Positions 2,255-45,392 of a stretch of DNA of 64,000 nt are shown in pieces. Each line of letters opens with the position of its first letter. Position 1 is the stretch's first letter. The DNA comes from Deltaproteobacteria bacterium (GTDB lineage Bacteria; Myxococcota; JADLHZ01): assembly GCA_020848545.1 (NCBI GenBank), contig JADLHZ010000031.1, positions 18,483 to 82,482 of the forward strand, given 5' to 3'. The position numbers were made by a program, and so were the translations under genes. The notes beneath the pieces are model-generated. The model did no database searches and was not told the origin of the DNA. It was given only the letters and a program-made list of their open reading frames with translations.

Positions 2255-2357
2255 GCGCTGACGCTGGCGATCCCTTCCGCCGAGAGGTGCGGCAGGGGGC
2301 TTGCATCATGTCCGGCGTGATGCAGCTTGGGATGCAAATGTTACCGCGCGGTGACGC

Positions 2358-4125: not shown

Positions 4126-5526
4126 CTAGCGATGGGTGTCTCCGTGCCCGATGACGTGCAGCATCCCCATCATGCCGAGCGCGGCGTGATCGAGGATGTG
4201 GCAGTGGAACATCCACATGCCGGGGCGGTCGTCGAAGTAGACGGCGAAGCGCAAGGTGCTTTTGCCGCGGACGTTCACGGTGTCCTTCCATTCTCGCGCG
4301 CGAAGGTTGTTCTTGGTGTCGAGCACCTGGAACGAGAACCCGTGCAGGTGAAATGGATGATCGTACGACGTCGTGTTGACGATCTCCCAGATCTCGGTGG
4401 TCCCCACATGCGCGTCGATCGGCAGCGCCTCCGAGTACGCTTGGCCGTTGATCGCAAGCACGGTGGTGCCGCCCGCCGCCTTCTCGCCGAGCTCGATGCG
4501 CCGCGTGCTCGCCGTGCTCACGTCGAGCGGGGAGAAGTCGCGCATGACGGCGTCGCTGCGCGCGGGCTCGCTCCACGGCGGCAGATCCGACTTCACGAGC
4601 ACGAAGAGGCGCTCCGGGTCGCGCGTGTAGCCAATGCCGTAGCGGTCCATGTCGTGCCACATGACCTCGGTCCGCGACGCGGCCTCGGGCTTCGGTGTGA
4701 CGACGACGTCCATGCGCTCGCCGGGCACGAGGCGGAGGCTGCCGATCGCGCGCGGCCGCTCGAGGAGCCCGCCGTCGCTCGCGACCTGCTCGAGCACGTG
4801 GTCCGGCACCGAGAGCTCGTAGAAGCGCGCGCGTGACGCGTTGATGATGCGCCACCGCTCGGGCGCGCCGGTTCGCGTCTTGATCTCGGGCAGCACGCGG
4901 CCGTTGACGAGCAGCACGTTGCCTTCGCGGCCGAAGTAGTCGCCAAACCAACCCGTGTCGTTGGGTGGGCGGAGGGTGCCATCGTCCTTGACGCTCGCGT
5001 CGCTGAGCACGAGCACCGCCTCGTCGCCGAGCGGCGGCTCGTCGTCTTCTACGATCAACGCGCCGTAGAGCCCTTGGCCGACTTGGCCGCTCGAGTCGTG
5101 ATGCGGGTGATACCAATAGGTGCCCGCATCGGGCGGCGTGAGCTCGTAGGTGAACGAGGCGCCGGGCTGGATCGGCGCCTGCGTCATCTCGCTGCCGTCC
5201 ATCGCCGCGTCGATGCGCAAGCCGTGCCAGTGGATCGTCGTCGGCGCTGGCAAGTGATTCGTGAAACGCACGCGAAGGACGTCGCCTCTGCGCACGCGCA
5301 GCGTCGGGCCGGGCACCTGGCCATCGTAGGTCCAGAGCTCCGTCACGACGCCGGGCCTGAGCTCTCGCGGCGCAACCCGGGCTTCGAGCGAGACGTCGAC
5401 GATGTGCGTATCAGGATCTTGGTCTTCAGCTTGGCCGAGGGCGATTCCGTCGGCCCAACCCTTTGCCTGGCGTTGCCCAGAGCCGCTGCTGCAGGCGACG
5501 AGGAGAATGAGGAGAGCGTTCTTCAT
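4126..5526 (-). CDS. Multicopper oxidase (CueO/CopA-like) lipoprotein
   Basis: Lipobox LLVACSSG. Copper sites HWHG, HPHHD and HCHILDHAALGMMG at the C-terminus. Confidence 0.85.
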   Translation of the reverse strand: MKNALLILLVACSSGSGQRQAKGWADGIALGQAEDQDPDTHIVDVSLEARVAPRELRPGVVTELWTYDGQVPGPTLRVRRGDVLRVRFTNHLPAPTTIHWHGLRIDAAMDGSEMTQAPIQPGASFTYELTPPDAGTYWYHPHHDSSGQVGQGLYGALIVEDDEPPLGDEAVLVLSDASVKDDGTLRPPNDTGWFGDYFGREGNVLLVNGRVLPEIKTRTGAPERWRIINASRARFYELSVPDHVLEQVASDGGLLERPRAIGSLRLVPGERMDVVVTPKPEAASRTEVMWHDMDRYGIGYTRDPERLFVLVKSDLPPWSEPARSDAVMRDFSPLDVSTASTRRIELGEKAAGGTTVLAINGQAYSEALPIDAHVGTTEIWEIVNTTSYDHPFHLHGFSFQVLDTKNNLRAREWKDTVNVRGKSTLRFAVYFDDRPGMWMFHCHILDHAALGMMGMLHVIGHGDTHR

Positions 5527-11735: not shown

Positions 11736-12179
11736 TCATTTCTCCAGTGACTTCAGATACGCGACGAGCAACGGCAGCTCGGTCTTCGGATCCACGCCTT
11801 GTGCTGGCATTGGCGTGAAGTGCGTCGCGAGGAGCTGCTTCGCCACCGGATCTTCCTTCACCATCACGTCGGGGCTGAGGACCATCCGCTGGATCCACGG
11901 CACGGTGCGGCGCGCGGTCACGCCTTTCAACCCCGGTCCGACGAGCTTCGTGTCGTCGGTCTTGTGACACGCCGGGCAGCCCTTCGCCGTGAAGATGCCC
12001 TTGCCCTTCTCGATGTCCGGAGCGGCCGTGCTCACGGTGATCGGGTCGATCTTGATCGACGCGGGTCCGTCTGGGCTCGCAGCGGCCGCTGCTGGTTCCT
12101 CGGCCTGAAGCTGCGGCTTCGCCGGAGCTTTTGTTTCGGTGCAGCCAAACAACGCGAGCGCAAAGAGTACGCGATACAT
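11736..12179 (-). CDS. Lipoprotein mono-haem c-type cytochrome (clade II nos-associated cytochrome c)
   Basis: Start MYRVLFALALFGC (lipobox). Single CPACH haem motif. Lies 14 bp downstream of nosZ. Confidence 0.75.
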   Translation of the reverse strand: MYRVLFALALFGCTETKAPAKPQLQAEEPAAAAASPDGPASIKIDPITVSTAAPDIEKGKGIFTAKGCPACHKTDDTKLVGPGLKGVTARRTVPWIQRMVLSPDVMVKEDPVAKQLLATHFTPMPAQGVDPKTELPLLVAYLKSLEK

Positions 12180-12193
12180 GGTGTGTTCCTTTC

Positions 12194-14167
12194 TCACTGT
12201 GCCGACGCGGTCTTCAGCCGCGGCTTGACCAAGAAGTAGCCCGCCATCTCGAGGTGCAGTGCCGAGCAAAATTCGGTGCAGTACATCGGATAGACGCCGG
12301 CCTTGTCGGCGACGAAGGTGATGTTCTCGTGCTTGCCTGGCTCGAGGCTGACGTTGATGTTGTACATGTTGAGCGCGAAGCCGTGCGTCTGATCGTCCGC
12401 CTGCTCGAGGCTCGTCAGGTGCAGGTTCACGGTGTCGCCTTCGTTCACCTCGATGCGATCCGGCGTGAAGTGGCTGCGGATGAGCGACATGTAGACGTCG
12501 ACGGTGGTGCCCTTGCGATCGATGCGTTCTTTGCCGGCCTCGGCGCGGAAGGGATCGAGCTTCTCCGTATACGGGTTCGTGCCGACGGCGTACTTCATGA
12601 CCGGCTTCAGCTTGTCCATCTTGATCATCTGCGAGTAGTGCGGCTCGCCGATGGCGATGGGCATGTCGTAGATGAGCTTCATCTTTGGGCCGCTCGCGTC
12701 GATGAGCTGGAAGTTCTGCGGCAACAGTGGGCCGACGCGGCTGAAGCGATCCATCGACATCTTGTTCATCGCGACGACGTACTTGCCGTCGGGGCTCACG
12801 GTGTCGCCCTCGGCCGCCATGATGTGGCCGATGTTGTAGTGGACTGGAAGCTTCTCGAGCAGCTTCATTTCCTTCAGTGACCACTTGGCGACGACGCTCT
12901 CGATGAAGACGGAGGTGTAGACGTTGCCCTTGTCGTCGAAGACCGAGTGCAGTGGTCCCAGGCCGATTTCGACTTGGCCGCGGATGCTGTCCTTGAACGC
13001 GAGGATCGGCACACCATAGGCGTCCTTGCCCTCGAACTTCTTCTCTTCGATCAGCGTCTTCAGCTTGCTGAACTCGTAGACCGTCGCGTGCGTGTCGAGC
13101 TTGCCGCCGACGACGACGGCGGTTCCGTCAGGCGTGACGTCGCAGCCGTGCGGGCTCTTCGGCTCGCCGACGAGCGTCAACACGCCCTCGGCGCCTGAGA
13201 CTTCGAGCGGCAACACTTTGAAGCCTTTGATCGTCTTCGCCTTGCCGGCTTTGACGAGCTGCTCGGCCTTTTTCCAGTTGATGATGTGCAAGTAGTCCAT
13301 GTCGTTCTGTGAGGCGCCGGACTCGATCGGGGGCTTGCCTTCCAGCACGCCACCGGTCGCCATCTCGGTGTTGAACGAGTTGATGAAGACGTAGCCGTCG
13401 GAGCCGAGCTTGCCGGCGTCGGCGAGATCCTGCGTGTAGGGCGGAAGCTCGACGGCCCAGCTGTTCTCGGGCTCGATGCGGCCGTGCTCCTTGTTGAACT
13501 TCCAGAACATCGCGAGCCCGCGGTACTTGTCCTTGTACTCGCCGATCGCAGCGTATTCGCGACCGAGCGGCGCCGGGTACTGGCTCGTCTCGACGATGTA
13601 GGTCGTGTTCGGATCGACGAAGGCGCCGCCGTGATCGCTCGAGATCAACGGATTGGCGACGATCTGCTTGGTCATGAAGTCGCTGAGATCGATGACCGCG
13701 ACGCGCGCGTTCGCCTTGTCGTTCACGAAGAGGTACTTGCCGTCGTAGTCGCCGTTCGTCTCGGAGAGGTTCGGGTGGTGCACGTCGGCCCAGGTGATCG
13801 ACTTGCCGTTCTGCTTGCCCTGATCGAACATCTCTTGGCCGCTTTTCGATCCGTAGCCGTAGCCTTGCCACGGCTCGGGGGCGAACACGCCGATCAGCTT
13901 CAGCATGCGCATCGACGGCACGCCGATCGCGAGCACTTGGCCGCCGTGACCGCCCGACGCGAAGATCATGTACTCATCGGCTTTACCGCCAGGTGTGTAC
14001 GTCTTCAGCGCGGCCTCGACGTCGGCCTCGGTGAGTTGGCGCGCGGTCATCAGCTCTTTGACTGACGAGCTGCCGGCGGGCTGGGTAGGTGCGCTGCCGC
14101 CTGTGCAACCGATGACGAGCGCGGCAGCGAGCGCCCATCCGAGAACGATGACGTGGTTTTGTTTCAT
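12194..14167 (-). CDS. nosZ: Nitrous-oxide reductase NosZ, clade II (Sec-type lipoprotein signal)
   Basis: CuA motif YPMYCTEFCSALHLEMAGY at the C-terminus. Beta-propeller CuZ domain histidines. Start MKQNHVIVLGWALAAALVIGCTGG is a lipobox, not Tat. ORF upstream extension rejected. Confidence 0.92.
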   Translation of the reverse strand: MKQNHVIVLGWALAAALVIGCTGGSAPTQPAGSSSVKELMTARQLTEADVEAALKTYTPGGKADEYMIFASGGHGGQVLAIGVPSMRMLKLIGVFAPEPWQGYGYGSKSGQEMFDQGKQNGKSITWADVHHPNLSETNGDYDGKYLFVNDKANARVAVIDLSDFMTKQIVANPLISSDHGGAFVDPNTTYIVETSQYPAPLGREYAAIGEYKDKYRGLAMFWKFNKEHGRIEPENSWAVELPPYTQDLADAGKLGSDGYVFINSFNTEMATGGVLEGKPPIESGASQNDMDYLHIINWKKAEQLVKAGKAKTIKGFKVLPLEVSGAEGVLTLVGEPKSPHGCDVTPDGTAVVVGGKLDTHATVYEFSKLKTLIEEKKFEGKDAYGVPILAFKDSIRGQVEIGLGPLHSVFDDKGNVYTSVFIESVVAKWSLKEMKLLEKLPVHYNIGHIMAAEGDTVSPDGKYVVAMNKMSMDRFSRVGPLLPQNFQLIDASGPKMKLIYDMPIAIGEPHYSQMIKMDKLKPVMKYAVGTNPYTEKLDPFRAEAGKERIDRKGTTVDVYMSLIRSHFTPDRIEVNEGDTVNLHLTSLEQADDQTHGFALNMYNINVSLEPGKHENITFVADKAGVYPMYCTEFCSALHLEMAGYFLVKPRLKTASAQ

Positions 14168-14182
14168 GATCGACGCAGTGAG

Positions 14183-14197
14183 CAAAAGAGGTGCCAC
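14183..14197 (-). promoter_or_regulatory. Sigma-54 promoter (perfect TGGCAC-N5-TTGC) for nosZ
   Basis: Minus strand reads TGGCACctcttTTGC. The -12 GC lies about 16 nt upstream of the nosZ ATG, so the transcript would be leaderless. Confidence 0.7.
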
Positions 14198-14248
14198 CGA
14201 CGAAAAGCGCGTAGCTTCGTGTTCTTGTGCGCGAGTGTTTCCCTCTCG

Positions 14249-14287
14249 TAACGAAGTCATCCCCGCCGTAGCGAAGCGGTAACGAAG
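14249..14287. promoter_or_regulatory. Three direct repeats GTARCGAAG between the divergent nosZ and FixH-like promoters (UAS candidate)
   Basis: gtaacgaag at 14249, gtagcgaag at 14268, gtaacgaag at 14279. The last two form CGAAGCGGTAACGAAG. Confidence 0.45.
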
Positions 14288-14313
14288 CGCATGGTTCCTC
14301 GGGCTGAGCGCCT

Positions 14314-14331
14314 TGGTTCGGAAGCTGCAAC
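14314..14331 (+). promoter_or_regulatory. Sigma-54-like promoter (TGGttcg-gaag-cTGCA) for the FixH-like/OMP genes
   Basis: GG/GC spacing is exactly 10. Predicted TSS coincides with ATG 14342 (leaderless). Divergent from the nosZ promoter. Confidence 0.5.
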
Positions 14332-14341
14332 CTCTCGGCGC

Positions 14342-14722
14342 ATGAAACTCGCGTATGCTTTTTGGGGGCTCGCGTTCTTGGCGGCGTGCGGCCCATCGCC
14401 GACCCCTGCGTCCAGCGACGGCCTCCGCGTCGAGCTCGCGTTCGAGAGCGGAGAGGCTGCTCTCGGCGACAACACGCTGCTCGTGCGCGTCTACGACCAA
14501 GGCGATCGGCCGATGGACGCCGAGGTCACGATGCACCTGCACATGCCGGCGCACGGACACGACCACGGCGATGCCAAGCCACCCGAGCTCACGCGGCGTG
14601 ACACCGGCGTGTACGCGCTCTCACCCGTGCGCTTCTCGATGGCAGGCGAGTGGAGGGTACACGTCAAGTGCAACTGCCCGATGGGCAACGGCGAGGCCGA
14701 GCAGATGGTCATGGTGCGCTGA
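14342..14722 (+). CDS. FixH/YtkA-like periplasmic lipoprotein (putative Cu-binding)
   Basis: Start MKLAYAFWGLAFLAACG (lipobox). Contains HLHMPAHGHDHG His/Met-rich segment and a VRFSMAGEWRVHVKC beta-sandwich. Divergent from nosZ. Confidence 0.5.
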   Translation: MKLAYAFWGLAFLAACGPSPTPASSDGLRVELAFESGEAALGDNTLLVRVYDQGDRPMDAEVTMHLHMPAHGHDHGDAKPPELTRRDTGVYALSPVRFSMAGEWRVHVKCNCPMGNGEAEQMVMVR

Positions 14723-14735
14723 GCGGCGGTGGTCG

Positions 14736-15623
14736 ATGTTCACGCGCAGCCTGATCCTCTTTGCGTTCGCGATCGTTGCGGGAGTTCCGGCGCGCGTTGA
14801 AGCAGGCTGCTGCTTCTCGACCACGGCGACGACGACCGCGCGCCTCGCGACTTGGGAGAAGGGCGTCGCTGGCTTGTCGGCGTCGTACGTGCGCGAGCTC
14901 GGCTACTTCAGCTCCGCAGCGCGCGCGGTGCCGCTCGGCGCCGGCACCGCGGATCAACAGCTTCGCTTCGATCTCTTCGGCCTCGTGCGTGTCACCGACG
15001 CCCTGACGCTCTCGCTGCTCATGCCGCTGTCGATGAACGCACGCTCGGCCTCGGGCGTCTTTGCGCTCGGCGGTGGCCTCGGCGACATCGCCGTCGGCGC
15101 TCGCTACGACTTGCTCCAGTTCGATCACTCGAATCGTCCCGGCCTCGCGCTCATCGCCGGCATCGCGATCCCGACCGGTCGCGCGATCGGCGCGGCGGAG
15201 CGCGCGCTCGCCGTCGACGCGACGGGCCGCGGCACGGCCATCCTCAACCTCGGCGTGAGCACCGAGTGGGCGTCGGAGCCGTGGTTCGTGCGCGGCGATC
15301 TCGTGGGCGGCATTCCGATGCCGACGGCGCAGGACGGAACCTGGGCGTGGCTCTCGCCGACCCTCGATCTCACGCTGATGGGCGGTGTGCGCGCGCATCG
15401 TTACTTGTTCTTCGGCGCCATCGCGCGCTTCGGGGTGCAGCTGCCGACGCGATCGCAAGCGTTCGGATACGATATGGCGCTCGGCGGCGGCGTCGCGTTG
15501 AAGCCGGATCCGCAGTGGGCCGTGCTCGTGAACGTCAGCGTCAGTCTGTTTGCGCCCGGCGCCGGCATGAACCGGAATGCGCCGCTCACCGCGAGCCTGG
15601 CGCTCCGCTATGCAGCCTGGTGA
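14736..15623 (+). CDS. Secreted outer-membrane beta-barrel protein (MetA-pathway/transporter-like family)
   Basis: Signal peptide MFTRSLILFAFAIVAGVPARVEA. Alternating amphipathic beta-strands. C-terminal aromatic residue W. Confidence 0.5.
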   Translation: MFTRSLILFAFAIVAGVPARVEAGCCFSTTATTTARLATWEKGVAGLSASYVRELGYFSSAARAVPLGAGTADQQLRFDLFGLVRVTDALTLSLLMPLSMNARSASGVFALGGGLGDIAVGARYDLLQFDHSNRPGLALIAGIAIPTGRAIGAAERALAVDATGRGTAILNLGVSTEWASEPWFVRGDLVGGIPMPTAQDGTWAWLSPTLDLTLMGGVRAHRYLFFGAIARFGVQLPTRSQAFGYDMALGGGVALKPDPQWAVLVNVSVSLFAPGAGMNRNAPLTASLALRYAAW

Positions 15624-15745
15624 AGCCGGTGGTCGCCCTAGGCTGCGCTGATGTTACGCAGCAGTAACTAGGATCCCACCGTTCGGTAACCCGCGGGGGC
15701 TGCGCCGGCTTGCAAGTGTGCACGGCGTTTGCAAAAGCGAGCGGG

Positions 15746-16207
15746 ATGATCACCCGAATCCTCCTGATGCTCGCGCTCGGCAGTGTCGTTCAAGATGGAC
15801 CGAAGAAGCTGCCGCTCCCGGGCTACATCTCACCACAGTTGCGCAAGGTGCTCGACAAACGCATGGAGCATCACGGCCGCGGGGCGATCGGCCTTTCGAT
15901 CGCGGTCGTCCTCCTCGCGCACGACGACGTCGCGGAGCTCGCGCTCGGGCTCGCGGAGCAGCCAGGCCTCGCGCGCCCCCGTCTCGGCGAAGAAGGCACC
16001 CTCAACGCGACGCTGCCGGCGCAGTTCTTTTCGTTTCAAGACCAGCTGCGCGAGCGCGCCAAGGAGCTCGCGGCGGCGGCGAAGCAGAAGAACAACGCGA
16101 AGATGCACGCGGCGCTCGGGCGCGTCACCGAGACGTGCATGACTTGCCACGCTGTTTACTTGAACGGCCCAGGCAGCGAAGAGAAGTGGTGGCCTCGAGA
16201 CGAATGA
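15746..16207 (+). CDS. Cytochrome c'-like (class II c-type cytochrome) protein
   Basis: Signal peptide. Helical ~150 aa. Single CMTCH haem motif near the C-terminus, as in cytochrome c'. Confidence 0.6.
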   Translation: MITRILLMLALGSVVQDGPKKLPLPGYISPQLRKVLDKRMEHHGRGAIGLSIAVVLLAHDDVAELALGLAEQPGLARPRLGEEGTLNATLPAQFFSFQDQLRERAKELAAAAKQKNNAKMHAALGRVTETCMTCHAVYLNGPGSEEKWWPRDE

Positions 16208-17064
16208 ACGCTTCAGAGCGCGATCGCCAGGTCGTGCGCGTGTCGGCGGCGATCCTGGTCGCGAACATCCTGGTCGCGGCCGGGAAGCTCATTTACGGCA
16301 CCGCGCTCGGCTCGATCGCGATCCGCGCCGACGGCTTCCACTCGCTGCTCGACGGCATCAACAACGTGGTCATCATCGTGGCGATGAGCGTCGCGGGCCG
16401 TCCGGCGGACGACGATCATCCTTATGGACATCGCAAGTTCGAGGTGCTCGCGAGCCTGGGCATCGGCGCGCTCTTCGCCGTGTTGATCTATCGGACCGCG
16501 ACGGATGCGTTCCTCGCGCTCGACGCCCCGCCCCGGACGCTCTCCAGTGACGCCTATGCCGTCGTGCTCGTCACGCTCGTCATCAACATCACGGTCGCCG
16601 CGGTGGAGCACGTCCTCGGCCGCCGCTTGCGGAGCGATTTGCTCATCGCCGACGCTCGCCACACCCTCTCGGACGTCTTCGTGTCTTTGACGGTGCTGGC
16701 CGGAGTCGTGCTGAATCGGCGTGGCGTGCCGGCCGCGGACGCGCTCTCCGCGCTCGTCGTGGTCTTGGTGATTGCGTGGGTGGGCTACGGTGTCGTGCGT
16801 CAGGCGATCGCAGGTCTCGCCGACGAAGTGGGCGTTCCGCCTGAAGAGCTGAGCGCGACGGCCGCATCAGTCGCCGGCGTGCGGGCGGTGTCACGCGTGC
16901 GTTCGCGCCAGTACGGCGGCGAGATCAAGATCGACGTCGTCATCACTGTCGACGGCGCGATCAGCGTGGCGGAGGCACATACGATCGCCGACGCGGTCGA
17001 GGCGGCGATCGAGCAGCGTTGGGCGCACGCGAGCGACGTCGTCGTCCACGTCGAGCCCGCGTGA
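16204..17064 (+). CDS. Cation diffusion facilitator (CzcD/FieF family) transporter
   Basis: 6 TM helices plus C-terminal cytoplasmic domain. HSLLDGINN and HxxxD-like motifs. ATGA overlap with upstream stop. Confidence 0.85.
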   Translation: MNASERDRQVVRVSAAILVANILVAAGKLIYGTALGSIAIRADGFHSLLDGINNVVIIVAMSVAGRPADDDHPYGHRKFEVLASLGIGALFAVLIYRTATDAFLALDAPPRTLSSDAYAVVLVTLVINITVAAVEHVLGRRLRSDLLIADARHTLSDVFVSLTVLAGVVLNRRGVPAADALSALVVVLVIAWVGYGVVRQAIAGLADEVGVPPEELSATAASVAGVRAVSRVRSRQYGGEIKIDVVITVDGAISVAEAHTIADAVEAAIEQRWAHASDVVVHVEPA

Positions 17065-17888
17065 GAGCGCTTGGCACCGCGCTTGCGAGAGCACTCGCCA
17101 TGCTCGGCGCTGCTCTGCCTTCGATCGCCTTTGACGACGCTGGTCACGGCTACGATCGCTTCGGGCTGTCTCCGTCCGCCTTGCGCGTCGCGTTCGCCGC
17201 CGCGTGGCCGCTCTATCGCTACTACTTTCGCGTCGCGAGCGTTGGCGCCGAGCACGTGCCAAAGGCCGGCGCGGCGATCGTCGTCGCGAACCATTCGGGC
17301 ATGCTGCCCTTTGACGGAATGATGTTGTGCATGGACGTGGCGCAGCAGCGGCAGCGCGCGCTGCGGCCGCTCGCCGATCATGCGGTCGGCGCGCTGCCGT
17401 TCATCGGCGTCGCCATGCAGCGCATCGGCGCGGTGTCCGGCACCAGCACGAACGCGCGCGCGCTGCTCGAGGCCGGCGAGATCTTGCTGGTGTTCCCTGA
17501 GGGCGTGCCAGGGATCAGTAAGCCCGCGCGACGAAAGTATCGCCTCACGCACTGGCGGCCGGGCCACGCAGAGCTCGCGCTGCGGCACAAGGCGCCGATC
17601 ATCCCGGCGGCAGTCGTCGGCGCCGAGGAGCAATTCCCGATCGTACACAACAGCAAGCGCCTCGGCCGGCTGGTCGGCGCGCCGCACGTGCCGCTGCCGT
17701 TTCTGCCGGTGCCGTTCGTGCCGGTGCCGCTGCCGGTGAAGTACCGCATCTATTATGGCGAGCCGATTGTTCCCGAGGGTGACGCCAACGATCCGAGCGC
17801 CGTCGAGCACGCGGCGTGGCAGACGCAGAACGCGGTGCAGGCGTTGATCGCGCGTGGGCTGCGCGAACGACGCGGGAGCTTCTGGTGA
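17061..17888 (+). CDS. Lysophospholipid (1-acyl-glycerol-3-phosphate) acyltransferase, PlsC family
   Basis: NHSGMLPFD (HX4D) and FPEG motifs. GTGA start-stop overlap. Alternative ATG at 17100. Confidence 0.75.
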   Translation: MRALGTALARALAMLGAALPSIAFDDAGHGYDRFGLSPSALRVAFAAAWPLYRYYFRVASVGAEHVPKAGAAIVVANHSGMLPFDGMMLCMDVAQQRQRALRPLADHAVGALPFIGVAMQRIGAVSGTSTNARALLEAGEILLVFPEGVPGISKPARRKYRLTHWRPGHAELALRHKAPIIPAAVVGAEEQFPIVHNSKRLGRLVGAPHVPLPFLPVPFVPVPLPVKYRIYYGEPIVPEGDANDPSAVEHAAWQTQNAVQALIARGLRERRGSFW

Positions 17889-18823
17889 GCCGCCTGAAGA
17901 GCGCACTCGTCACCGGCGCGACGACGCCGCTCGGCCGCAGCTTGTGTGCGCGGCTGTTGGCGAGTGGCTGCGAAGTGCTGGCGGTGGGGCTCGAGGCCGA
18001 GAGCGCTGCGCGCTTTCTGATCCCCGAGGCCGCGGCGTATGCAGCCGCCGATCTCGCCAAGCCGCGCGAGCTGCACGATCTCGTGTTTGGGCCGGCGAAG
18101 GCGCGATCGATCGACACCGTGTTTCACTTGGCGACGCATCGCAGCCTCGGCGTCGAAGGCGAGCGTGTGCACGCGCTGAACGTCGAGGCGTTGCGCCAGC
18201 TCATCGCGCACTGCGAAGCGCATCCGACGATCGCGCGCCTCGTCTACCGCTCGTACGCCGAGGTGTACCGCGTGGATCAGCGGCTGCCGAACGTCATCGA
18301 CGAGGAGCACCCGCTCGATCATGGCGCCGGACGCCCGCAGTGGCTGCGCGACCGCGTGGAGGCCGACGGCGTGGCGTGCGCGCGCATGGGCATGACGAAG
18401 CTCGAGATCGCGGTCCTGCGCTGCGCCGACGTCTTCGCCTCGGGCACCGGATCGCAGATCTACGACTACGTGCGTTCGCGGGTGTGCTTCAAGCCGCTCG
18501 GCTTCGATCCCATGATCAACCTGTTGTCGCTCGAAGACGCGGCAGAGGCCCTGTTTCTCGCCGGCGCCGCCGAGCGGGGCCAGGGCGTCTTCAACGTGCC
18601 GGGCGCCGACACGATGCCGCTCGGTTTGTGCATTCGCTCTGCGAAGCGCATCGCCGTGCCGCTGCCGGGACCGCTGCTCTTGCCGCTCTATGCGCTGAGG
18701 CGGCGGATCATTCGCACCGAGTTCTCGTACGGGCTCTATAAAGGACGCATGCACTTTCCCGGCATCCTCGACGGCCGTCGTGCGCGTGAGGTGCTCGGCT
18801 TCCAGCCGGCCGGGGTCAGCTGA
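17885..18823 (+). CDS. NAD-dependent epimerase/dehydratase (SDR family)
   Basis: N-terminal Rossmann motif ALVTGATTPLGRSL. GTGA overlap with upstream stop. Confidence 0.75.
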   Translation: MSRLKSALVTGATTPLGRSLCARLLASGCEVLAVGLEAESAARFLIPEAAAYAAADLAKPRELHDLVFGPAKARSIDTVFHLATHRSLGVEGERVHALNVEALRQLIAHCEAHPTIARLVYRSYAEVYRVDQRLPNVIDEEHPLDHGAGRPQWLRDRVEADGVACARMGMTKLEIAVLRCADVFASGTGSQIYDYVRSRVCFKPLGFDPMINLLSLEDAAEALFLAGAAERGQGVFNVPGADTMPLGLCIRSAKRIAVPLPGPLLLPLYALRRRIIRTEFSYGLYKGRMHFPGILDGRRAREVLGFQPAGVS

Positions 18824-19721
18824 CCAGCCCGTCTCCGCGCACGATGAGCACGCTGCGATCGGCGTTGTTCGCGATCCGCCCGGCGGTCGTTCCGAGCACG
18901 CGGTCGATCGGATCGTAGCCGTGTGAGCCGATGACGATGAGGCCGGCGTCTTTACCGCGTGCGATGTCGAGGACGACGTCAGCGGGCGTGCCGATGCGCG
19001 CTTCCGTCTCGGCGGCGATGGCGTCCGGCAGGGCGCCGCGGACTTGCTCGAGCTGCGTCTTCTCACGTTGCACGAGCATCGCCATGAGCTCATCCGGCCG
19101 CGCACCCCACACCGCCGAGGTGATGTCGGCGGGCGGCTGCACCGCGCGGATCAGCGTGAGGCGCCCGCGGCTCGGCCGCGCGAGGGCTTCGGCGGCCGCG
19201 AGCACGCGCTGCGAACGCTCGGAGCCGTCATGCGCGACGGCGATGCGCTCGAAGCCGACCGCCGCCTTCGCGCCCTTTGCTTGCCGCGCGATCAGCACCG
19301 AGCAGTCGGCGCGGTTCGCGATCTTCGCCGCGGTGGTGCCGAGCAAACGCTCGACCGGCCGGTACGTGTGCGCGCCGATGACGATGATCGCGGCGTGGTG
19401 CGCGATCGCCGCGTCCTTGATCACGCGCCACGCCGGGCCGGCCTCGACCTTCTCGTCGATCACCGTCCCTTGGCGAAAGCTCGACGCTGCCGTAGCGACC
19501 GCTTTGCGCGCGGCCGCGTCCATCTCGTTCCAGATCGTCGAGTCGTTGAAGGCAGCGAGCTCGGGCGGAACGAGCGCCTGCAGCTCCATGCCTTCGACGG
19601 CGGAGATCAGCGCGACCTTTGCGTCGAGCCGATCGGCCATCAGGCGCGCCGCTTCAACGACGAGCGCCGCGCGCGGAGACGGGTCGACGGCGACGACGAT
19701 GACTCTGTTCTTCGTGCTCAT
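18816..19721 (-). CDS. Tandem universal stress protein (2x UspA domains)
   Basis: Start MSTKNRVIVVAVD. Two USP domains with VIGSHG/VIGAHT motifs. Confidence 0.8.
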   Translation of the reverse strand: MSTKNRVIVVAVDPSPRAALVVEAARLMADRLDAKVALISAVEGMELQALVPPELAAFNDSTIWNEMDAAARKAVATAASSFRQGTVIDEKVEAGPAWRVIKDAAIAHHAAIIVIGAHTYRPVERLLGTTAAKIANRADCSVLIARQAKGAKAAVGFERIAVAHDGSERSQRVLAAAEALARPSRGRLTLIRAVQPPADITSAVWGARPDELMAMLVQREKTQLEQVRGALPDAIAAETEARIGTPADVVLDIARGKDAGLIVIGSHGYDPIDRVLGTTAGRIANNADRSVLIVRGDGLVS

Positions 19722-19895
19722 GCTCTGCCGCGGTTTCACGCCTCGTGCCATGCGCCAGGAACGAGGACTGGGGGCTCTTTGTGTCACCGAACGGTAGCAC
19801 GAGTGGTGGTCGAGATTTCCGAACGGTAACTCTCACCCTGTAATCGCACGTCGTCGGCGCGCACGCACTTTGCATTCTTCCTCGCGGAGGTGCCG

Positions 19896-20678
19896 ATGAA
19901 AGGCACGATCAGGTCGTTTTACGAGCGCTACCCGCGGCGGTGGAGTTACCCGGTTGCGGGGCTCGTGCTCGCGCTCGGCGCGCCGATCGGCTTCTTCGTC
20001 GTGCGCGCGCTCTTCGCCGGTCACATTCCGTCGCCGATGTGGATCGAGGTCGAGCTGCGGGAGCGCTTCGATGCTTACGTCTACCTCACCTTCGCCACGG
20101 CGATCGTCTTCTCCTGGGCCGGCCGCGTCGTCGGTGTCGAGCAAGATCGCGTGCGCGCGGACTCGCTGACCGATCCGCTCACCAGCCTGCCGAACCGGCG
20201 CTTCGCGCAAGAACGCGCCGAGGCGCTGCTCTTGCGCGGGGATCCGCGCGTCTCGGTGTTGCTCATCGATCTCGACGGCTTGAAGCAGATCAACGAGAAG
20301 CACGGCCATGACGGCGGCGATCGTGCGCTCTGCGCCGTCGCGGCGACGCTGCGTAAAGTCTGCCGGCGTGAAGACGTGTTCGCGCGCTACGGCGGCGACG
20401 AGTTCATCGTGCTCTTGCCGAAGATGGTCGCCGCCGACGCGATGCGTGTCGCCGAACGCGTGTGCGCGACGATGACGAAGACGGCGCAGACGAACGGCCT
20501 TGGTCCACTCTCGGTGTCCATCGGGGTCGCCGATACCGAGACGGCCGCGACGAACACGCTGCTCGGGCTGGTGCAGGCGGCCGATGCGGCGCTGCAAGCC
20601 GCGAAGCACGAAGGCAAGAACCGTGCGAAGCTGGCCCGCTCGTTGCACAAAGCCGCCGGCAAGGGAGCCGTCTCATGA
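19896..20678 (+). CDS. GGDEF-domain diguanylate cyclase with N-terminal TM region
   Basis: RYGGDEF active site. GGAGG RBS 6 bp upstream of ATG 19896. Confidence 0.85.
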   Translation: MKGTIRSFYERYPRRWSYPVAGLVLALGAPIGFFVVRALFAGHIPSPMWIEVELRERFDAYVYLTFATAIVFSWAGRVVGVEQDRVRADSLTDPLTSLPNRRFAQERAEALLLRGDPRVSVLLIDLDGLKQINEKHGHDGGDRALCAVAATLRKVCRREDVFARYGGDEFIVLLPKMVAADAMRVAERVCATMTKTAQTNGLGPLSVSIGVADTETAATNTLLGLVQAADAALQAAKHEGKNRAKLARSLHKAAGKGAVS

Positions 20679-24329: not shown

Positions 24330-24475
24330 ACGAACCTCTGACGCGTCACCCGATCACTTTTCGTGCCACTTTCGCATACTTGTGGCGAAGCGGAAGATGT
24401 TTCGGCTTGGTAACGCCGCCGATGGGATCGTCACCGACAGGTGCGTTTCCCTCGGTGTCTTCGCGGTGAACTCCT

Positions 24476-24491
24476 TGGTGTGCGCTTTGCA
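24476..24491 (+). promoter_or_regulatory. Sigma-54 promoter (TGGtgtg-cgct-TTGCA) for Host_attach-EBP-kinase operon
   Basis: Correct GG-N10-GC spacing. TTGCA -12 element. About 15-nt leader with GAGGTG SD before ATG 24517. Confidence 0.6.
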
Positions 24492-24516: not shown

Positions 24517-24879
24517 ATGGAGACGATCTGGGTCCTGGTCTGCAACCAAAAGAGCGCTGTGATCCTGAGCGCCAAAGCGCGGACCGCAGCTCCTCAGATC
24601 GTGGAGACCATCGGCAATCCCGACGAGAGCGACCCTCTGGTCTTTGCGCGGCGCTTGGCGGCGATGCTCGAGAGCGCGGCCGATATGGGCGGCTTCGATC
24701 GCCTCGTCGTCATGGCGCCGGCGCCGTTTCTCGCCAGCCTCGAGGACGTGTTCCATGCCCCGGTGCGAGGGCGCATTGCCCTCACCATCCAGGAAGACAT
24801 CGCCGAATGGCCGATGCCGGAGATCGTTGCGTCGGTACGCAAAATCATCGATGAGCAGGTGCGTGTAGCCGGCGCCTAG
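24517..24879 (+). CDS. Host_attach (baeRF1-like) family small protein
   Basis: IWVLVCNQKSAVIL ... GFDRLVVMAPAPFLASL ... DIAEWPMPEI matches the Host_attachment signature. GAGGTG RBS. Sits downstream of a sigma-54 promoter. Confidence 0.55.
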   Translation: METIWVLVCNQKSAVILSAKARTAAPQIVETIGNPDESDPLVFARRLAAMLESAADMGGFDRLVVMAPAPFLASLEDVFHAPVRGRIALTIQEDIAEWPMPEIVASVRKIIDEQVRVAGA

Positions 24880-24903: not shown

Positions 24904-26268
24904 ATGCTTTCGATCTTGCTCGTAGACGATGAGCCTTCGATCCGGTTGGCGGTCGGCGATGCCCTCGCCGGCAACGGGCACAAGGTGACGCGCGCCAGTG
25001 ACGGCGGCGAGGCACTCGCGCTGCTCGATGCACAGGTCTTCGACCTCGTGGTCACGGACATCAGCATGCCCAAGGTCGACGGGCTGACGCTCTTTCGTAA
25101 GTTGCGCGAAGCGAGCCCGTCGACCGACGTCATCTTGATGACCGCGTACGGCAAGGTGACCGACGCCGTCGAGGCGCTCAAGCAGGGTGCTGAAGACTAC
25201 CTGACGAAGCCTTTTTCTACGGAAGAGATGCTCGTGCGCGTGCAGCGGATCGACGATCGCCGCGCGTTGAAGCGCGAGCTGCAAGCGGCCAAGTCCGAGC
25301 TGACGGGGGGTGGCATCATCGGCCAATCGCCGGTGATGGTGCGCCTGCTCGATCGCATCGATACGATCGCAGCGAGCGATGCCAGCGTCTTGATCCTCGG
25401 CGAGAGCGGCACGGGCAAGGAGCTCGTCGCCAGGCGCTTGCACGATCAGAGCGCGCGCAAGGCGAAGCCCTTCGTCGCCGTCAACTGCGCCGCGTTTCCC
25501 GAGACGCTGATCGAGGCTGAGCTCTTCGGCCATGAGCGCGGTGCGTTCACTGGCGCGGCGCAGCGGCGCGAAGGCAGGTTCAAGGCGGCCGACGGCGGCA
25601 CGCTCTTTCTCGACGAGGTGGCCGAGATCCCGTTGCCGGTTCAGGCGAAGCTCCTGCGCGTGCTGCAAGAAGGGGTGTTCGAGCCGATCGGAACGAACAC
25701 GCCGATCAAGGTGAACGTCCGCGTCATCTCGGCCACACACAGAGATCTGCGCGCGCGAATCAAAGAGCACGCGTTCCGCGAGGATTTGTTCTATCGCTTG
25801 AACGTGCTCGACGTGCACCTGCCGCCCCTGCGCGAGCGTCGTGGCGACTTGCCGCTGCTCGTGGAGGCGTTCTTGAAGCGCGCAGTCGGTCGCGGCGGTG
25901 CGCAGCCGGCGGGGATCTCGCCGCGCGCGTGGGCAGCGCTCTCGGACTACTTGTTTCCGGGCAACGTGCGCGAGCTTCAGCACGCGATAGAGCACGCCGT
26001 CGTGCTCGCCCGCGGCGGCGAGATCGATCTGCACCACCTGCCGCGCGATATCGTCGGCATCGCCGAGGCCAAGAAGGATCAAGCGACGACTGCCGTACGG
26101 ACGCTGGCGGTGGCGGCCAAGGAGTTCGAGCGCGAATACCTCTTGCGCGCGCTGCACCAGGCCGACGGCAAGAAAGGACGCGCGGCGGACCTGCTCGGCA
26201 TCTCGCGCAAGAACCTCTGGGAGAAGCTCAAGGGTCATGACATCGCAGACAGCGACGACGACGCATGA
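24904..26268 (+). CDS. Sigma-54-dependent Fis-family response regulator (NtrC-like EBP)
   Basis: REC domain (D54 region VVTDISMP). AAA+ sigma-54 activation domain with GESGTGKE and GAFTGA. C-terminal Fis HTH. Confidence 0.9.
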   Translation: MLSILLVDDEPSIRLAVGDALAGNGHKVTRASDGGEALALLDAQVFDLVVTDISMPKVDGLTLFRKLREASPSTDVILMTAYGKVTDAVEALKQGAEDYLTKPFSTEEMLVRVQRIDDRRALKRELQAAKSELTGGGIIGQSPVMVRLLDRIDTIAASDASVLILGESGTGKELVARRLHDQSARKAKPFVAVNCAAFPETLIEAELFGHERGAFTGAAQRREGRFKAADGGTLFLDEVAEIPLPVQAKLLRVLQEGVFEPIGTNTPIKVNVRVISATHRDLRARIKEHAFREDLFYRLNVLDVHLPPLRERRGDLPLLVEAFLKRAVGRGGAQPAGISPRAWAALSDYLFPGNVRELQHAIEHAVVLARGGEIDLHHLPRDIVGIAEAKKDQATTAVRTLAVAAKEFEREYLLRALHQADGKKGRAADLLGISRKNLWEKLKGHDIADSDDDA

Positions 26269-26338
26269 GCGACGCGATGCAGACGCTCGGCAAGCGCGGG
26301 TTTGACGTCGTGCCGCTCCTGCGCGAACCCACGCCGCG

Positions 26339-27418
26339 ATGATCCGGGTCTTTCTCGTGGACGACGACGAGGACGACTACGTCCTCACGCGTGGCCTCCT
26401 CGGCGACATTCCCGGGAGCTTCGAGCTCGCGTGGATGCCGTCGATCGACAAGGCGCGCGCCGCGTTGCGCGACACAGTGCCCGACCTCATCCTGCTCGAC
26501 TATCTCCTTGGTGCCGAGAGCGGCCTCGATTTCCTGAAGGAGCTGCGCAGAGCCGGGCTCGGGCTGCCAGTGATTATCCTCACTGGGCAAGGCGATCGCG
26601 AGATCGACATGGCGGCCATGGCGGCCGGGGCCACGGACTACTTGGTGAAGAGCGAGCTCTCGGCCGCGATCTTGGACCGGGCGATCCGCTACGCGATGTC
26701 GGTGAGCGAGCTGCACCGAAAGCTGCTCGAGGATCACGAGCGCTTGCAGCAGATGGAGAAGCTTTCTGTCGTCGGGCTGATCGCCGCGGGGATCGTGCAC
26801 GAGGTGAGCAACCCGCTGACCGGCGTCATGAGTCTCGTGCAAGCGCTGCACGACGGCAAGGCGGGCGACTCGCGCGACGAGTACTTCAAGGCGGTCAAAG
26901 ACGGGCTCGAGCGGATGCGCGTCACCCTGCGATCGTTGCTCGATCTCGCGCGCGAGCAGCCGTTGACGCTCGCTGAGGTGGACGTCGCAGAGCTCGTGGC
27001 GGCCTGCTTTCGCCTGATGGCGGCCACGCTGCGCTCGCGCGGCATCACGCCGGTGCAGGACGTTCCCGCTGGCTTGCGCGCGCGCGCCGATCGATCGCGG
27101 GTGATTCAGGCGATCCTGAACCTGATGATGAACGCCGCCGACGCGACCCCCTCCGGCGGCAGCATCACGGTCAGCGTCACGAAGAAGCCCGGCAGCATCG
27201 GCATCGTCGTCACCGACACCGGCGCCGGCATTGCGCCCGCGATCGCCGAGCGGATCCTCGAGCCCTTCTTCACGACGAAGTCGGTGGGGAAGGGCACGGG
27301 CCTCGGCCTACCCTTCGTCGTCCAGACGGCGAAGCTCCACGGCGGCGACCTGACCATCGCCAGTCAGGTGGGCAAGGGGACGACGATGACGATGTGGCTA
27401 CGCGATGACGCGCGGTGA
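26339..27418 (+). CDS. Hybrid histidine kinase with N-terminal receiver (REC-HisKA-HATPase), cytoplasmic
   Basis: N-terminal REC (LLDYLLGAESG). H-box IVHEVSNPLTG. N, G1 and G2 boxes. No TM segment. Confidence 0.85.
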   Translation: MIRVFLVDDDEDDYVLTRGLLGDIPGSFELAWMPSIDKARAALRDTVPDLILLDYLLGAESGLDFLKELRRAGLGLPVIILTGQGDREIDMAAMAAGATDYLVKSELSAAILDRAIRYAMSVSELHRKLLEDHERLQQMEKLSVVGLIAAGIVHEVSNPLTGVMSLVQALHDGKAGDSRDEYFKAVKDGLERMRVTLRSLLDLAREQPLTLAEVDVAELVAACFRLMAATLRSRGITPVQDVPAGLRARADRSRVIQAILNLMMNAADATPSGGSITVSVTKKPGSIGIVVTDTGAGIAPAIAERILEPFFTTKSVGKGTGLGLPFVVQTAKLHGGDLTIASQVGKGTTMTMWLRDDAR

Positions 27419-27787
27419 GCGGCGACGGCGGCGCTCCTCGATGGTGCCGATGCGCGTGAGCAGCTCCTCCTCGGTGAACGGCTTCGTCAAGTACTCGTCG
27501 GCGCCGAGCTTGAACGCTTGCACCACGTTCGGAACGCTGCTGAACGCGGTCATGACCACGACGTCGGTCGTCGGGCTCAGCGTGCGGACTTCGCGCAAGA
27601 GCGTCATGCCATCCATCTCGGGCATGCTCACGTCGGTGATCACGAGATCGAAGACCTGCTTCGTGCACTTCTCGGTCGCCTCGACGCCGTCGTTGGCTCG
27701 CACCACGCGGTGACCGGCGCGCGTGAGAGCGTCGCCGATCGCCAGGCGGATCGACGGTTCGTCGTCGACGAGGAGGATGGAGAGCAT
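27398..27787 (-). CDS. Single-domain CheY-like response regulator, paralog of the EBP receiver
   Basis: MLSILLVDDEPSIRLAIGDAL is nearly identical to the EBP N-terminus MLSILLVDDEPSIRLAVGDAL. Codon usage differs, so the duplication is old. Confidence 0.85.
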   Translation of the reverse strand: MLSILLVDDEPSIRLAIGDALTRAGHRVVRANDGVEATEKCTKQVFDLVITDVSMPEMDGMTLLREVRTLSPTTDVVVMTAFSSVPNVVQAFKLGADEYLTKPFTEEELLTRIGTIEERRRRRSPRVIA

Positions 27788-27792
27788 GCGCT

Positions 27793-28044
27793 TTAGATCT
27801 TCTTCTTCGTCGTCTTCTGGAATTCGATCAGCGCTTGGATCGCGCCGCCGAGCGCTGCCGCGGAGACCTCCGTCACTTCGAGCGCGGCCTCCTCGGCCTT
27901 CAGCACGCGCGGTTCGAGCGCCGCCCACGCTTGCTTCAGCTCCATGCCGAACAAGTGCGCCTGCACGCGGATCTCGTCGCGCAGCGTGCGCAGCTTGCTC
28001 AGGCTCTCGTCGATCTGCTTCTGTAGCTCCTTCTTCTTTTCCAT
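27793..28044 (-). CDS. Small all-helical protein (83 aa), possible Hpt-like or coiled-coil connector
   Basis: Start MEKKKELQKQ. Coiled-coil heptads. AHLFGMELK is weakly Hpt-like. Lies between CBS and CheY genes in the same operon. Confidence 0.4.
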   Translation of the reverse strand: MEKKKELQKQIDESLSKLRTLRDEIRVQAHLFGMELKQAWAALEPRVLKAEEAALEVTEVSAAALGGAIQALIEFQKTTKKKI

Positions 28045-28070
28045 CGCCTGCTCCTCGTCCGTTTGTGAAA

Positions 28071-28520
28071 TTAGTCTTCGTCCAAGAGATCGAGCACCCA
28101 AGCGAGCGCCGCTAGCGCGTCGACGGCGGTGAAGATGCCGACGACGCGTCCCTTGTCTGCGACGACGGCCGAGCCGAACTTCTTGCGCGCCATCACCCGC
28201 ACCGTCTCGTCCAGCTTCGCCAGCGGCGCCACCACGTAGGGCTCCGACGTCATCGCCTCTTCGACCGCGATCGCGCCCGGATCGACACCGTCGAGGGTCT
28301 CGACCATCTCGAGATCGCGCTGCGACACGATGCCGACCAGCTTGCCGCCGTCGAGCACGGGCAAGTGGCGGATGCCGTGCTCGCGCATCAGCTCGTGCGC
28401 TTTCTGCAGTGTTTGCTTCCTACCAATCGTATGCGGCGTGGCGGTCATGTACTTGTCGACCGTCTCGGCGACGTGCTTGCCCCTGATCGAGATCGTCTGT
28501 GCTCGTGGCCTAGGCGACAT
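28071..28520 (-). CDS. CBS-domain pair protein
   Basis: Two CBS motifs (HLPVLDGGKLVGIVSQRDL and AVVADKGRVVGIFTAVD). GGAGGA RBS. Sigma-54 promoter upstream. Confidence 0.8.
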   Translation of the reverse strand: MSPRPRAQTISIRGKHVAETVDKYMTATPHTIGRKQTLQKAHELMREHGIRHLPVLDGGKLVGIVSQRDLEMVETLDGVDPGAIAVEEAMTSEPYVVAPLAKLDETVRVMARKKFGSAVVADKGRVVGIFTAVDALAALAWVLDLLDED

Positions 28521-28545
28521 GTTCGAATCCTCCGGCGACAGGAAT

Positions 28546-28561
28546 TGCAAAGTAGGGACCA
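28546..28561 (-). promoter_or_regulatory. Sigma-54 promoter (TGGtccc-tact-TTGCA) for CBS - small protein - CheY operon
   Basis: Minus-strand sequence TGGTCCCTACTTTGCA. About 17-nt leader with GGAGGA SD before ATG 28520. Confidence 0.6.
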
Positions 28562-28600
28562 AGGTCGAATGCCTGGGCTCATCGGTGGAATGGTTTCGAA

Positions 28601-28630
28601 TCGGTAACGCCCGCCCGTTGGTGCGTTACC
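28601..28630. promoter_or_regulatory. Palindrome CGGTAACGC-N12-GCGTTACCG upstream of CBS-operon sigma-54 promoter (UAS candidate)
   Basis: Perfect 9-bp inverted repeat, 45-75 bp upstream of the -24 element. Confidence 0.5.
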
Positions 28631-29044: not shown

Positions 29045-29087
29045 GCGCCGCGGAGTTGCACGAGTCGGACCAAGCACGGCTGACGCT

Positions 29088-45332: not shown

Positions 45333-45392
45333 GGCATGGCGCCGCGAATGCTGCGTTTTTGCCGCGGCCCGAGATTTGCTCGGCGCCGCCGC

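Follow-up and report, generated by a model that had tools for sequence, protein, structure and literature searches.

The transcription of nosZ, the gene for nitrous-oxide reductase, is known to be regulated by FNR/CRP-family proteins (NnrR, DNR, FixK2, NssR) or by NosR, and a Crp/Fnr regulator was suggested for a clade II thermophile. In these systems, nosZ is induced under low oxygen or by nitrogen oxides (N-oxides), from promoters of the sigma-70 type in which a dimeric activator box is located near -41.5. Here, a clade II nosZ locus of an uncultured Deltaproteobacteria bacterium (Myxococcota) was analyzed in a window of 64,000 nt, which is the whole stretch studied (GenBank assembly GCA_020848545.1, contig JADLHZ010000031.1, positions 18,483 to 82,482). 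The same logic of low-oxygen or N-oxide induction may apply to it, whereas its nosZ is preceded by a sigma-54-type -24/-12 element, no such activator box was noticed, and the nos cluster contains no nosR gene. The computational analysis of the sequence supports the view that nosZ is driven by this sigma-54 promoter. Literature searches for sigma-54 together with nosZ gave no paper in which nosZ is described as sigma-54-controlled.

Classical sigma-54/NtrC-type promoters, such as glnAp2, nifH, and the NmpR- and PexR-dependent promoters of Myxococcus xanthus, share with this locus a GG-N10-GC core with the consensus TGGCAC-N5-TTGC. Repeats 50-120 bp away, here candidate upstream sites, and a nearby gene for an activator of the REC-AAA+-HTH_8 architecture are further likenesses. 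The pexR-ahpC (PMC12754779) and mxan_4235/4236 (PMC11841059) regions of M. xanthus are likewise short divergent regions with two promoters and several upstream sites. The present locus differs from classical sigma-54 promoters in its target, a clade II nosZ operon, in the promoter abutting the start codon with no 5' leader predicted, and in the candidate upstream sites being direct repeats instead of dyads.

Another related regulatory system is NmpRSTU of M. xanthus, an oxygen-limitation phosphorelay whose NtrC-like regulator activates the sigma-54 promoters of a CBS-domain gene, a universal stress protein (USP) gene, hemN-hemerythrin, and cbb3 oxidase (PMC11841059). The same components are found in the window: an NtrC-like regulator, a REC-HisKA-CA hybrid kinase, and a stand-alone REC protein, and the loci encoding orthologues of the regulator add an upstream sensor kinase. 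The gene sets are also alike, as CBS and USP genes here are preceded by sigma-54-type promoters, hemN and a hemerythrin-domain gene are nearby, and a cbb3 oxidase is encoded beside one orthologue. In contrast to NmpRSTU, the sensor kinase of the orthologue loci has a PAS domain and not a protoglobin, and no sensor kinase gene is present beside the activator gene in the window. In place of the NmpR site GCGCA-N5-TGCGC, which shows no enrichment in the window, GTAAC(G) is found here, and the published NmpR regulon does not include nosZ. The likeness is one of layout and gene set.

Leaderless mRNAs are abundant in Actinobacteria, Deinococcus, and Leptospira, and present in rhizobia; in myxobacteria, pexR was suggested to be leaderless and transcribed from a sigma-A promoter (PMC12754779). 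The leaderless mRNAs and the mRNAs predicted here share a 5' start at ATG only, the lack of a Shine-Dalgarno sequence, and a fixed promoter-ATG distance. For the leaderless genes reported so far, the promoters are of the sigma-70 type with a -10 or extended -10 element (PMC4842269, PMC12754779), whereas here a sigma-54 -24/-12 element stands at the fixed distance. Literature searches combining leaderless with sigma-54 or RpoN gave no report of leaderless mRNAs that are driven by sigma-54 as a class. The sigma-54 promoter, the NtrC-type activator, leaderless translation, and the clade II nos cluster are all of known kinds, and it is their combination and the target that are new.

The nosZ promoter (Table 1) includes an exact match to TGGCAC-N5-TTGC, TGGCACCTCTTTTGC, as reported in an earlier note on this DNA; its position is 14196..14182 on the minus strand, one base away from the 14197..14183 reported there. 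The nosZ ATG begins at 14167, not at 14168 as that note had it. The short promoter-ATG gap described in the note is real, with 15 nt from the -12 C (14182) to the A of ATG instead of about 16. The GG and GC doublets are exactly 10 nt apart, and the core matches TGGCACG-N4-TTGCW. The G+C content of the window is 66%, and two exact copies of TGGCAC-N5-TTGC were found against 0.13 expected; two or more copies were seen in none of 100 shuffled sequences. Both copies abut start codons. In a weight-matrix scan of both strands, a check suggested in the earlier note, the nosZ site was the top match of the window at 16.3 bits, where the matrix is a rough one built from the published consensus, as holds for all bit scores in this text. 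The nosZ site and the site of the divergent ytkA gene are both inside the 174-bp nosZ-ytkA intergenic region, and each is directed at its own gene.

Related nosZ loci carry such sites as well. The comparison included 57 loci from species-representative genomes, nearly all Myxococcota or "delta proteobacterium" and mostly Polyangia, and three closer relatives found via their proteins. The best sense-strand match within 250 nt upstream of the nosZ start was taken from the 53 loci with enough upstream sequence, and 4094 windows from the same loci served as controls. Matches of at least 10 bits were present at 21 of the 53 nosZ loci (40%) against 2.4% of the controls (binomial p ~1e-20), and matches of at least 13 bits at 11 (21%) against 0.7%. 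The sites are positionally clustered upstream of nosZ. Both their sequence and their position vary by group (TGGTTCG-N4-TTGCA, CGGCACGGAACCTGCT, TGGCAT-N5-TTGC), and thus they are not one inherited stretch counted repeatedly. The two closest relatives both have TGGCAT-N5-TTGC: TGGCATCACGCTTGCT in L058, whose NosZ is 88% identical, is located ~48 nt upstream of nosZ, which starts with GTG there and has a GGAG ribosome-binding site, and TGGCATGGTCATTGCC is found upstream of nosZ in L059. The third added relative, L060, has CGGTACGGACCTTGCG, and nosZ of L050 shows a 15-nt layout like that of the window.

In 13 relatives, mostly Labilithrix-like, a gene pair divergent from nosZ encodes first a membrane sensor kinase (HisKA/HATPase) and then an activator of the REC-AAA+-HTH_8 type. 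The count covers those loci in which the gene for this activator is located 1.5-5 kb upstream of nosZ on the other strand. In at least 8 of the 13, a leaderless-type sigma-54 promoter precedes the kinase gene, and in most, the palindrome GACTCTCA-N4-TGAGAGTC is found once or twice before nosZ. The motif GACTCTC was found 21 times upstream of sigma-54-type sites, where 1.7 were expected. The pair looks like a dedicated nos two-component system. The sigma-54 control of nosZ proposed in the earlier note gains support from both the enrichment of sites upstream of nosZ in related Polyangia and these adjacent NtrC-type activators.

The distance between promoter and start codon was analyzed with all sites of at least 9 bits, by measuring how far each downstream ATG is from the -12 C in 713 kb (the window and 58 loci), later extended to 748 kb; all loci scanned are nos neighbourhoods of related genomes. 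In the 713 kb, 9, 21, 13, and 7 ATGs were found at 13, 14, 15, and 16 nt, compared with about 3 per offset elsewhere. In the 748 kb, 52 ATGs were at 13-16 nt against 15 expected (Poisson p 8e-14), and 44 against 13.6 when the window was excluded. A reversed decoy matrix gave no significant ATG distance peak. About 40 of the peak ATGs begin long open reading frames (ORFs) with high G+C at third codon positions (GC3), from some twenty families, including usp, scdA, ribosome-hibernation-factor-like, transporter, PAS-GGDEF, and sigma-70-family genes, the nos-adjacent sensor kinase, and ytkA.

The peak is specific to ATG. After filtering by ORFs, ATG counts at 13-17 nt were 6, 16, 11, 4, and 5 against a background of 2.2, while GTG counts at the same offsets were 2, 1, 3, 2, and 1 against 2.2, and TTG and CTG showed no peak either. 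In genomes of this kind, genes commonly start with GTG. Leaderless translation is known to require AUG (PMC3616915). A peak at ATG only is therefore the expected signature of leaderless genes. Of 40 peak ATGs, 31 are directly preceded by C (p 1e-8). Bacterial RNA polymerase usually initiates with a pyrimidine at -1 and a purine at +1. The C at -1 and the A at +1 fit this context, and transcription thus probably starts at the A of ATG itself. What the analysis shows in silico is that the promoters are present, that they are conserved, and that their distance from the start codon is fixed and specific to ATG.

The genes nosZ, ytkA, and the acyltransferase gene at 17100 all start with ATG, and no GGAG-like sequence was found in the 14-15 nt before these three ATGs. 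GGAG or GGAGG is present before the genes for usp2 (20675), the CBS protein (28520), a GGDEF protein (19897), and the baeRF12-like protein (24517). Since window genes with room for a leader carry this motif, its absence from the three genes is meaningful. In the minimum-energy fold of the predicted nosZ 5' end, AUCAUGAAACAAAACCACG, the first 18 nt are unpaired. This end is no more structured than shuffled sequences (z = -0.03), and Rfam had no match across the whole window, so a structured RNA or riboswitch was rejected. The leaderless nosZ and ytkA transcripts predicted in the earlier note are supported by the ATG-specific peak at 13-16 nt, the null result of the decoy, and the C at -1.

NosZ belongs to clade II, as it scores 831 bits with TIGR04246 (cutoff 625) and 398 bits with the Tat-type model (cutoff 625). 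Its N-terminus, MKQNHVIVLGWALAAALVIGC, is a lipoprotein-type signal peptide without twin arginine. A downstream start was rejected; the next in-frame ATG, which is the only other one, is at residue 40 and would delete the signal peptide. The protein is 100% identical to one annotated in a "Deltaproteobacteria bacterium" metagenome-assembled genome (MAG), and its nearest relatives are from Polyangiaceae/Polyangiales MAGs.

A divergent promoter before ytkA was also proposed in the earlier note and is supported, as the ytkA orthologue of L058, located elsewhere in that genome, keeps a -24/-12 element, TGGCGTGGTTGATGCA, 15 nt from its ATG. Between the two promoters, the three GTARCGAAG repeats noticed earlier were confirmed. 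They are the only three in the window, all within 14248..14287 and with spacings of 20 and 11, against 0.43 expected per window. They are located at about -78..-117 from the predicted nosZ start and -53..-92 from the predicted ytkA start, a position that would be suitable for a shared enhancer. The enhancer role that the note assigned to these direct, not inverted, repeats is plausible and is an inference.

The core of the repeats is shared with other promoters of the window. GGTAACG occurs eight times against 2.1 expected, and none of 100 shuffled sequences reached eight. Four of the eight copies are just upstream of sigma-54-type promoters: one in the nosZ-ytkA region, one before the activator operon, and two before the CBS-REC operon. 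In L058, GGTAAC-N5-GTTACC and GTAACG precede nosZ and GTAACG-TG-CGTTAC precedes ytkA, and in L059, GTAACG precedes nosZ. Upstream of the sigma-54-type sites of all loci, CGTTAC was found 17 times against 2.5 expected and GGTAAC 14 times against 2.0.

The only NtrC-type activator gene found in the 64 kb is the one at 24904. The activator is a member of a well-conserved family, and many homologues at 64-88% identity were found. The orthologue clusters encode a PAS kinase, a REC protein, a REC-kinase, and the activator, and one of them is beside genes for cbb3 oxidase and a P-type ATPase. In two orthologue contigs, L061 and L062, the PAS kinase is present and GTAAC-type motifs are located between divergent sigma-54 promoters beside the activator orthologue. 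From this layout, activator 24904 probably belongs to an Nmp-like, hypoxia-sensing phosphorelay. The link drawn earlier between nosZ and this activator, encoded 10 kb away, gains from the recurrence of GTAAC(G) before the activator operon and in the orthologue loci. That activator 24904 acts via the repeats is the leading hypothesis and is plausible. The REC-only protein (27398-27787, minus strand) and the activator's receiver domain (24904-25250, plus strand) share 61% identity, which suggests that the two may compete for one kinase.

Table 1. Positions of the genes, promoters, and candidate regulatory elements discussed in the text (window coordinates, except for the last row).
Feature	Position	Strand	Details
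nosZ coding sequence	12194..14167	-	Sec-dependent, clade II nitrous-oxide reductase; ATG at 14167
Predicted nosZ transcription start	14167..14170	-	A of ATG or up to 3 nt upstream; mRNA 5'-(AUC)AUGAAACAAAAC; from promoter geometry
Sigma-54-type promoter of nosZ	14181..14196	-	TGGCACCTCTTTTGCT; GG 14195-14194, GC 14183-14182
Three direct repeats	14248, 14268, 14279 (14248..14287)	+	GTAACGAAG / GTAGCGAAG / GTAACGAAG; candidate shared upstream activating sequence
Sigma-54-type promoter of divergent operon	14314..14329	+	TGGTTCGGAAGCTGCA; 11.3 bits; -12 C 14328, 14 nt to ATG 14342
Divergent operon	14342..17064	+	Pfam matches; gene frames from GC3 profile
YtkA-like lipoprotein gene (PF13115)	14342-14722	+	
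Outer-membrane-type protein gene	14736-15623	+	
Cytochrome c'-like protein gene	15710-16207	+	
Cation-diffusion-facilitator (CDF) transporter gene	16204-17064	+	
Third sigma-54-type promoter	17072..17087	+	TGGCACCGCGCTTGCG; second exact TGGCAC-N5-TTGC (17072..17086), 14 nt to ATG 17100
Acyltransferase gene	17100-17888	+	Promoter in the short gap after the CDF transporter gene
Sigma-54-type site before usp	19735-19750	-	15 nt to ATG; weak -12
Sigma-54-type site before second usp (usp2)	20632-20647	+	Leadered, GGGAG
Upstream region of activator operon	24409..24491	+	GGTAACG-N13-CGTCACC (24409-24435); sigma-54-type promoter TGGTGTGCGCTTTGCA (24476-24491); heads baeRF12-like/activator/hybrid-kinase operon, leadered
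baeRF12-like gene	24517-24879	+	First gene of activator operon
NtrC-type enhancer-binding protein gene	24904-26268	+	REC-AAA+-HTH_8; candidate activator
Hybrid kinase gene	26339-27418	+	REC-HisKA-HATPase; candidate activator system (24904..27418)
REC-only protein gene	27398-27787	-	CBS-REC operon
CBS-domain protein gene	28071-28520	-	CBS-REC operon
CBS-REC operon with its promoter	27398..28630	-	Promoter TGGTCCCTACTTTGCA (28561-28546), leadered; upstream GGTAACG-N14-CGTTACC (28603-28630)
Sigma-54-type site before lipoprotein gene	29057-29072	-	14 nt; sequence closely similar to ytkA site
Sigma-54-type site before CotH-like gene	45365-45380	+	14 nt
Kinase-activator pair in 13 related loci	1-6 kb upstream of nosZ		L016, L022, L023, L028, L029, L031, L033-L035, L037, L039, L052, L054

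Taken as a whole, it is likely that sigma-54 RNA polymerase transcribes both nosZ and the divergent ytkA-outer membrane protein-cytochrome c'-CDF operon from promoters set against their ATGs, as leaderless mRNAs, under an NtrC-type activator, likely 24904, acting via the repeats. The sigma-54 holoenzyme would wait as a closed complex on both back-to-back promoters, and an activated NtrC-type hexamer would assemble on the GTAAC(G) repeats between them. ATP hydrolysis by the activator would open one or both promoters, and transcription would begin at the A of ATG or 1-3 nt before. The mRNAs, lacking a Shine-Dalgarno leader, would be translated as leaderless messages, and the expression level would be set almost wholly by the activator. 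The most likely activator is the REC-AAA+-HTH_8 protein 24904, which would act in a conserved multi-component phosphorelay laid out like NmpRSTU. This scheme would place nosZ, along with usp, CBS, and other genes of the window, in a sigma-54 regulon for hypoxia or anaerobiosis, and the signal is probably low oxygen. The exact start site, the binding of the activator to the repeats, the identity of the activator, and the signal are what we infer here.

Several observations weigh against this reading. No gene encoding an RpoN box was found in the 64 kb, and rpoN is thus absent from the window. In M. xanthus, sigma-54 is reported to be essential (PMC12316311). The related loci are not independent of one another phylogenetically, and several of the leaderless cases are mutual orthologues. 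A good sigma-54 site is missing from about half of the related nosZ loci, among them those of the cultured Myxococcus and Pyxidicoccus, so sigma-54 control is a lineage feature and not universal. Most relatives with a site at nosZ have a leader of 35-65 nt with a Shine-Dalgarno sequence, and the leaderless layout of nosZ is a minority state. An in-frame TTG (14185) and an in-frame GTG (14197), 6 and 10 codons before the nosZ ATG, would be usable if the transcript were longer.

The upstream sites provide further points on this side. NtrC-type activators usually bind inverted repeats, unlike the direct repeats of the window with their spacings of 20 and 11. With up to one mismatch, the NmpR site GCGCA-N5-TGCGC was found 17 times in the window against 24 expected, and none is located in the nosZ-ytkA region; it was rejected as the upstream site there, and it occurs in L004, L005, L031, L040, and L060. 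Relatives have other upstream motifs, such as GACTCTCA-N4-TGAGAGTC, which dominates the Labilithrix-like relatives and was rejected as the site of the window after it was not found in the nosZ region. In L060 (6880-6975), a perfect NmpR-type site, GCGCAATCTCTGCGC, is located between divergent sigma-54-type promoters, one on the nnrS side (13.0 bits, leadered) and one of a 309-aa gene beside nosZ (15.3 bits, 16 nt to ATG).

These points bear on an alternative in which the sigma-54 promoters are real and a different activator drives them, while the GTARCGAAG repeats bind another regulator or nothing. The activator could then be encoded elsewhere, such as an orthologue of the nos-adjacent pair of the Labilithrix-like relatives, or be a NorR-type sensor of nitric oxide, and the repeats could be bound by a winged-helix response regulator. 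Winged-helix response regulators favour direct repeats about 10-11 bp apart, and the direct orientation and the spacings of the repeats would suit this. The nos-adjacent activators of the 13 relatives are 38-47% identical to that of the window and have a different palindrome as their upstream site, the window activator meets no specific NCBIfam family cutoff, and many such activators are encoded in Myxococcota (PMC12316311). Against it, the GTAAC(G) core recurs before the activator operon, before the CBS-REC operon, and beside activator orthologues in two other contigs, and no other activator gene is present in the window. On balance this alternative is unlikely, and control by activator 24904 through the repeats is preferred.

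It is very improbable that the -24/-12 matches are not working promoters and that transcription starts further upstream from a housekeeping-type promoter, under FNR/CRP-type or other control as for nos genes elsewhere (PMC5582078, PMC11539149), and that translation begins at the ATG or at the upstream TTG or GTG with no ribosome-binding site of the usual kind. A simple consensus scan found no sigma-70-type promoter in 13900..14600, which is a weak negative because myxobacterial housekeeping promoters fit the E. coli consensus poorly; the upstream in-frame codons and the half of related loci lacking a good site also fit this alternative. It is opposed by the two exact consensus copies against 0.13 expected, both of which abut start codons, with the nosZ site as the top match, by the enriched and clustered sites of the relatives, and by the ATG-specific peak with C at -1, which is hard to account for unless transcription starts there. 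In addition, none of the three candidate start codons is preceded by a Shine-Dalgarno sequence, and no FNR-type TTGAT-N4-ATCAA box was noticed when the 174-bp intergenic region was read by eye, a weak negative.

By its promoter and start, the acyltransferase gene at 17100 is a third putative leaderless-type sigma-54 unit. With the sites before the usp, usp2, lipoprotein, and CotH-like genes and before the activator and CBS-REC operons (Table 1) added to those of nosZ and ytkA, the first 30 kb of the window look like a sigma-54 regulon island. Downstream of nosZ on the same strand, genes for a cytochrome c (11736-12170), nosD, nosF, a 128-aa protein, nosY, and a 200-aa membrane protein are found. 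The neighbouring genes of the window also include nnrS, scdA, and hemN, which are typical members of N-oxide or anaerobic regulons.

L058 (6990-17561) and the window (14342-20678) have modules in common (transporter, nosZ cluster, ytkA with the outer-membrane gene, usp, and GGDEF), in different order and orientation. Every module of L058 has its own sigma-54-type promoter, with seven such sites in 18 kb.

Upstream of hemN (2290-2361, plus strand), a sigma-54-like sequence, CGGCAGGGGGCTTGCA (11.3 bits), is located 16 nt before the ATG of a 13-codon ORF, MQLGMQMLPRGDA, whose TGA shares bases with the TTG at which the hemN ORF starts (TTGA); GTTACCgcgcGGTGAC is inside this mini-ORF. The arrangement may be due to chance, or the mini-ORF may be leaderless and coupled to hemN as an upstream ORF. 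The second-best sigma-54 match of the window, TGGCTCGGGTGTTGCT (1848-1863, minus strand, 15.3 bits), is antisense within the scdA/hemerythrin-domain gene with no gene downstream, which would make it an antisense promoter or, alternatively, a binding site within a gene. Two multicopper oxidases are encoded in the window, at 4126-5526 and 31460-32761, both on the minus strand. The former was rejected as NirK, as it is CueO-like and scores far under the NirK cutoff. Its gene adjoins a LuxR/GerE-type regulator gene and nnrS, and has an 11.0-bit match to the sigma-54 matrix inside it at 5229.

Beyond this locus, we lean slightly towards the view that Polyangia, and perhaps Myxococcota, have a sizeable class of sigma-54 promoters starting on the A of the start codon, whose leaderless mRNAs would be gated by enhancer-binding proteins, and into which clade II nosZ was recruited in several lineages, through either a dedicated nos-adjacent kinase-activator pair or, in the window, an Nmp-like phosphorelay with GTAAC-type sites. 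If true, the start-site geometry of sigma-54 would be fixed at such genes, which would be useful for promoter prediction and start-codon annotation in high-GC genomes, and the fusion of the promoter to the start codon would remove all leader-based post-transcriptional control.

Organisms with clade II nosZ are major sinks of nitrous oxide (N2O), and the regulation of their nosZ is poorly known; the existing models of nosZ regulation were built on Proteobacteria, with NosR and regulators of the FNR/CRP family. The locus supplies concrete cis-elements and candidate regulators for testing. An all-or-none switch by sigma-54 and its activator, possibly linked to oxygen limitation, would change the expectations of when myxobacterial N2O reducers express nosZ. 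If this is true, these bacteria, which are abundant in soil and groundwater, would control N2O reduction by a regulatory logic that is missing from current denitrification models.

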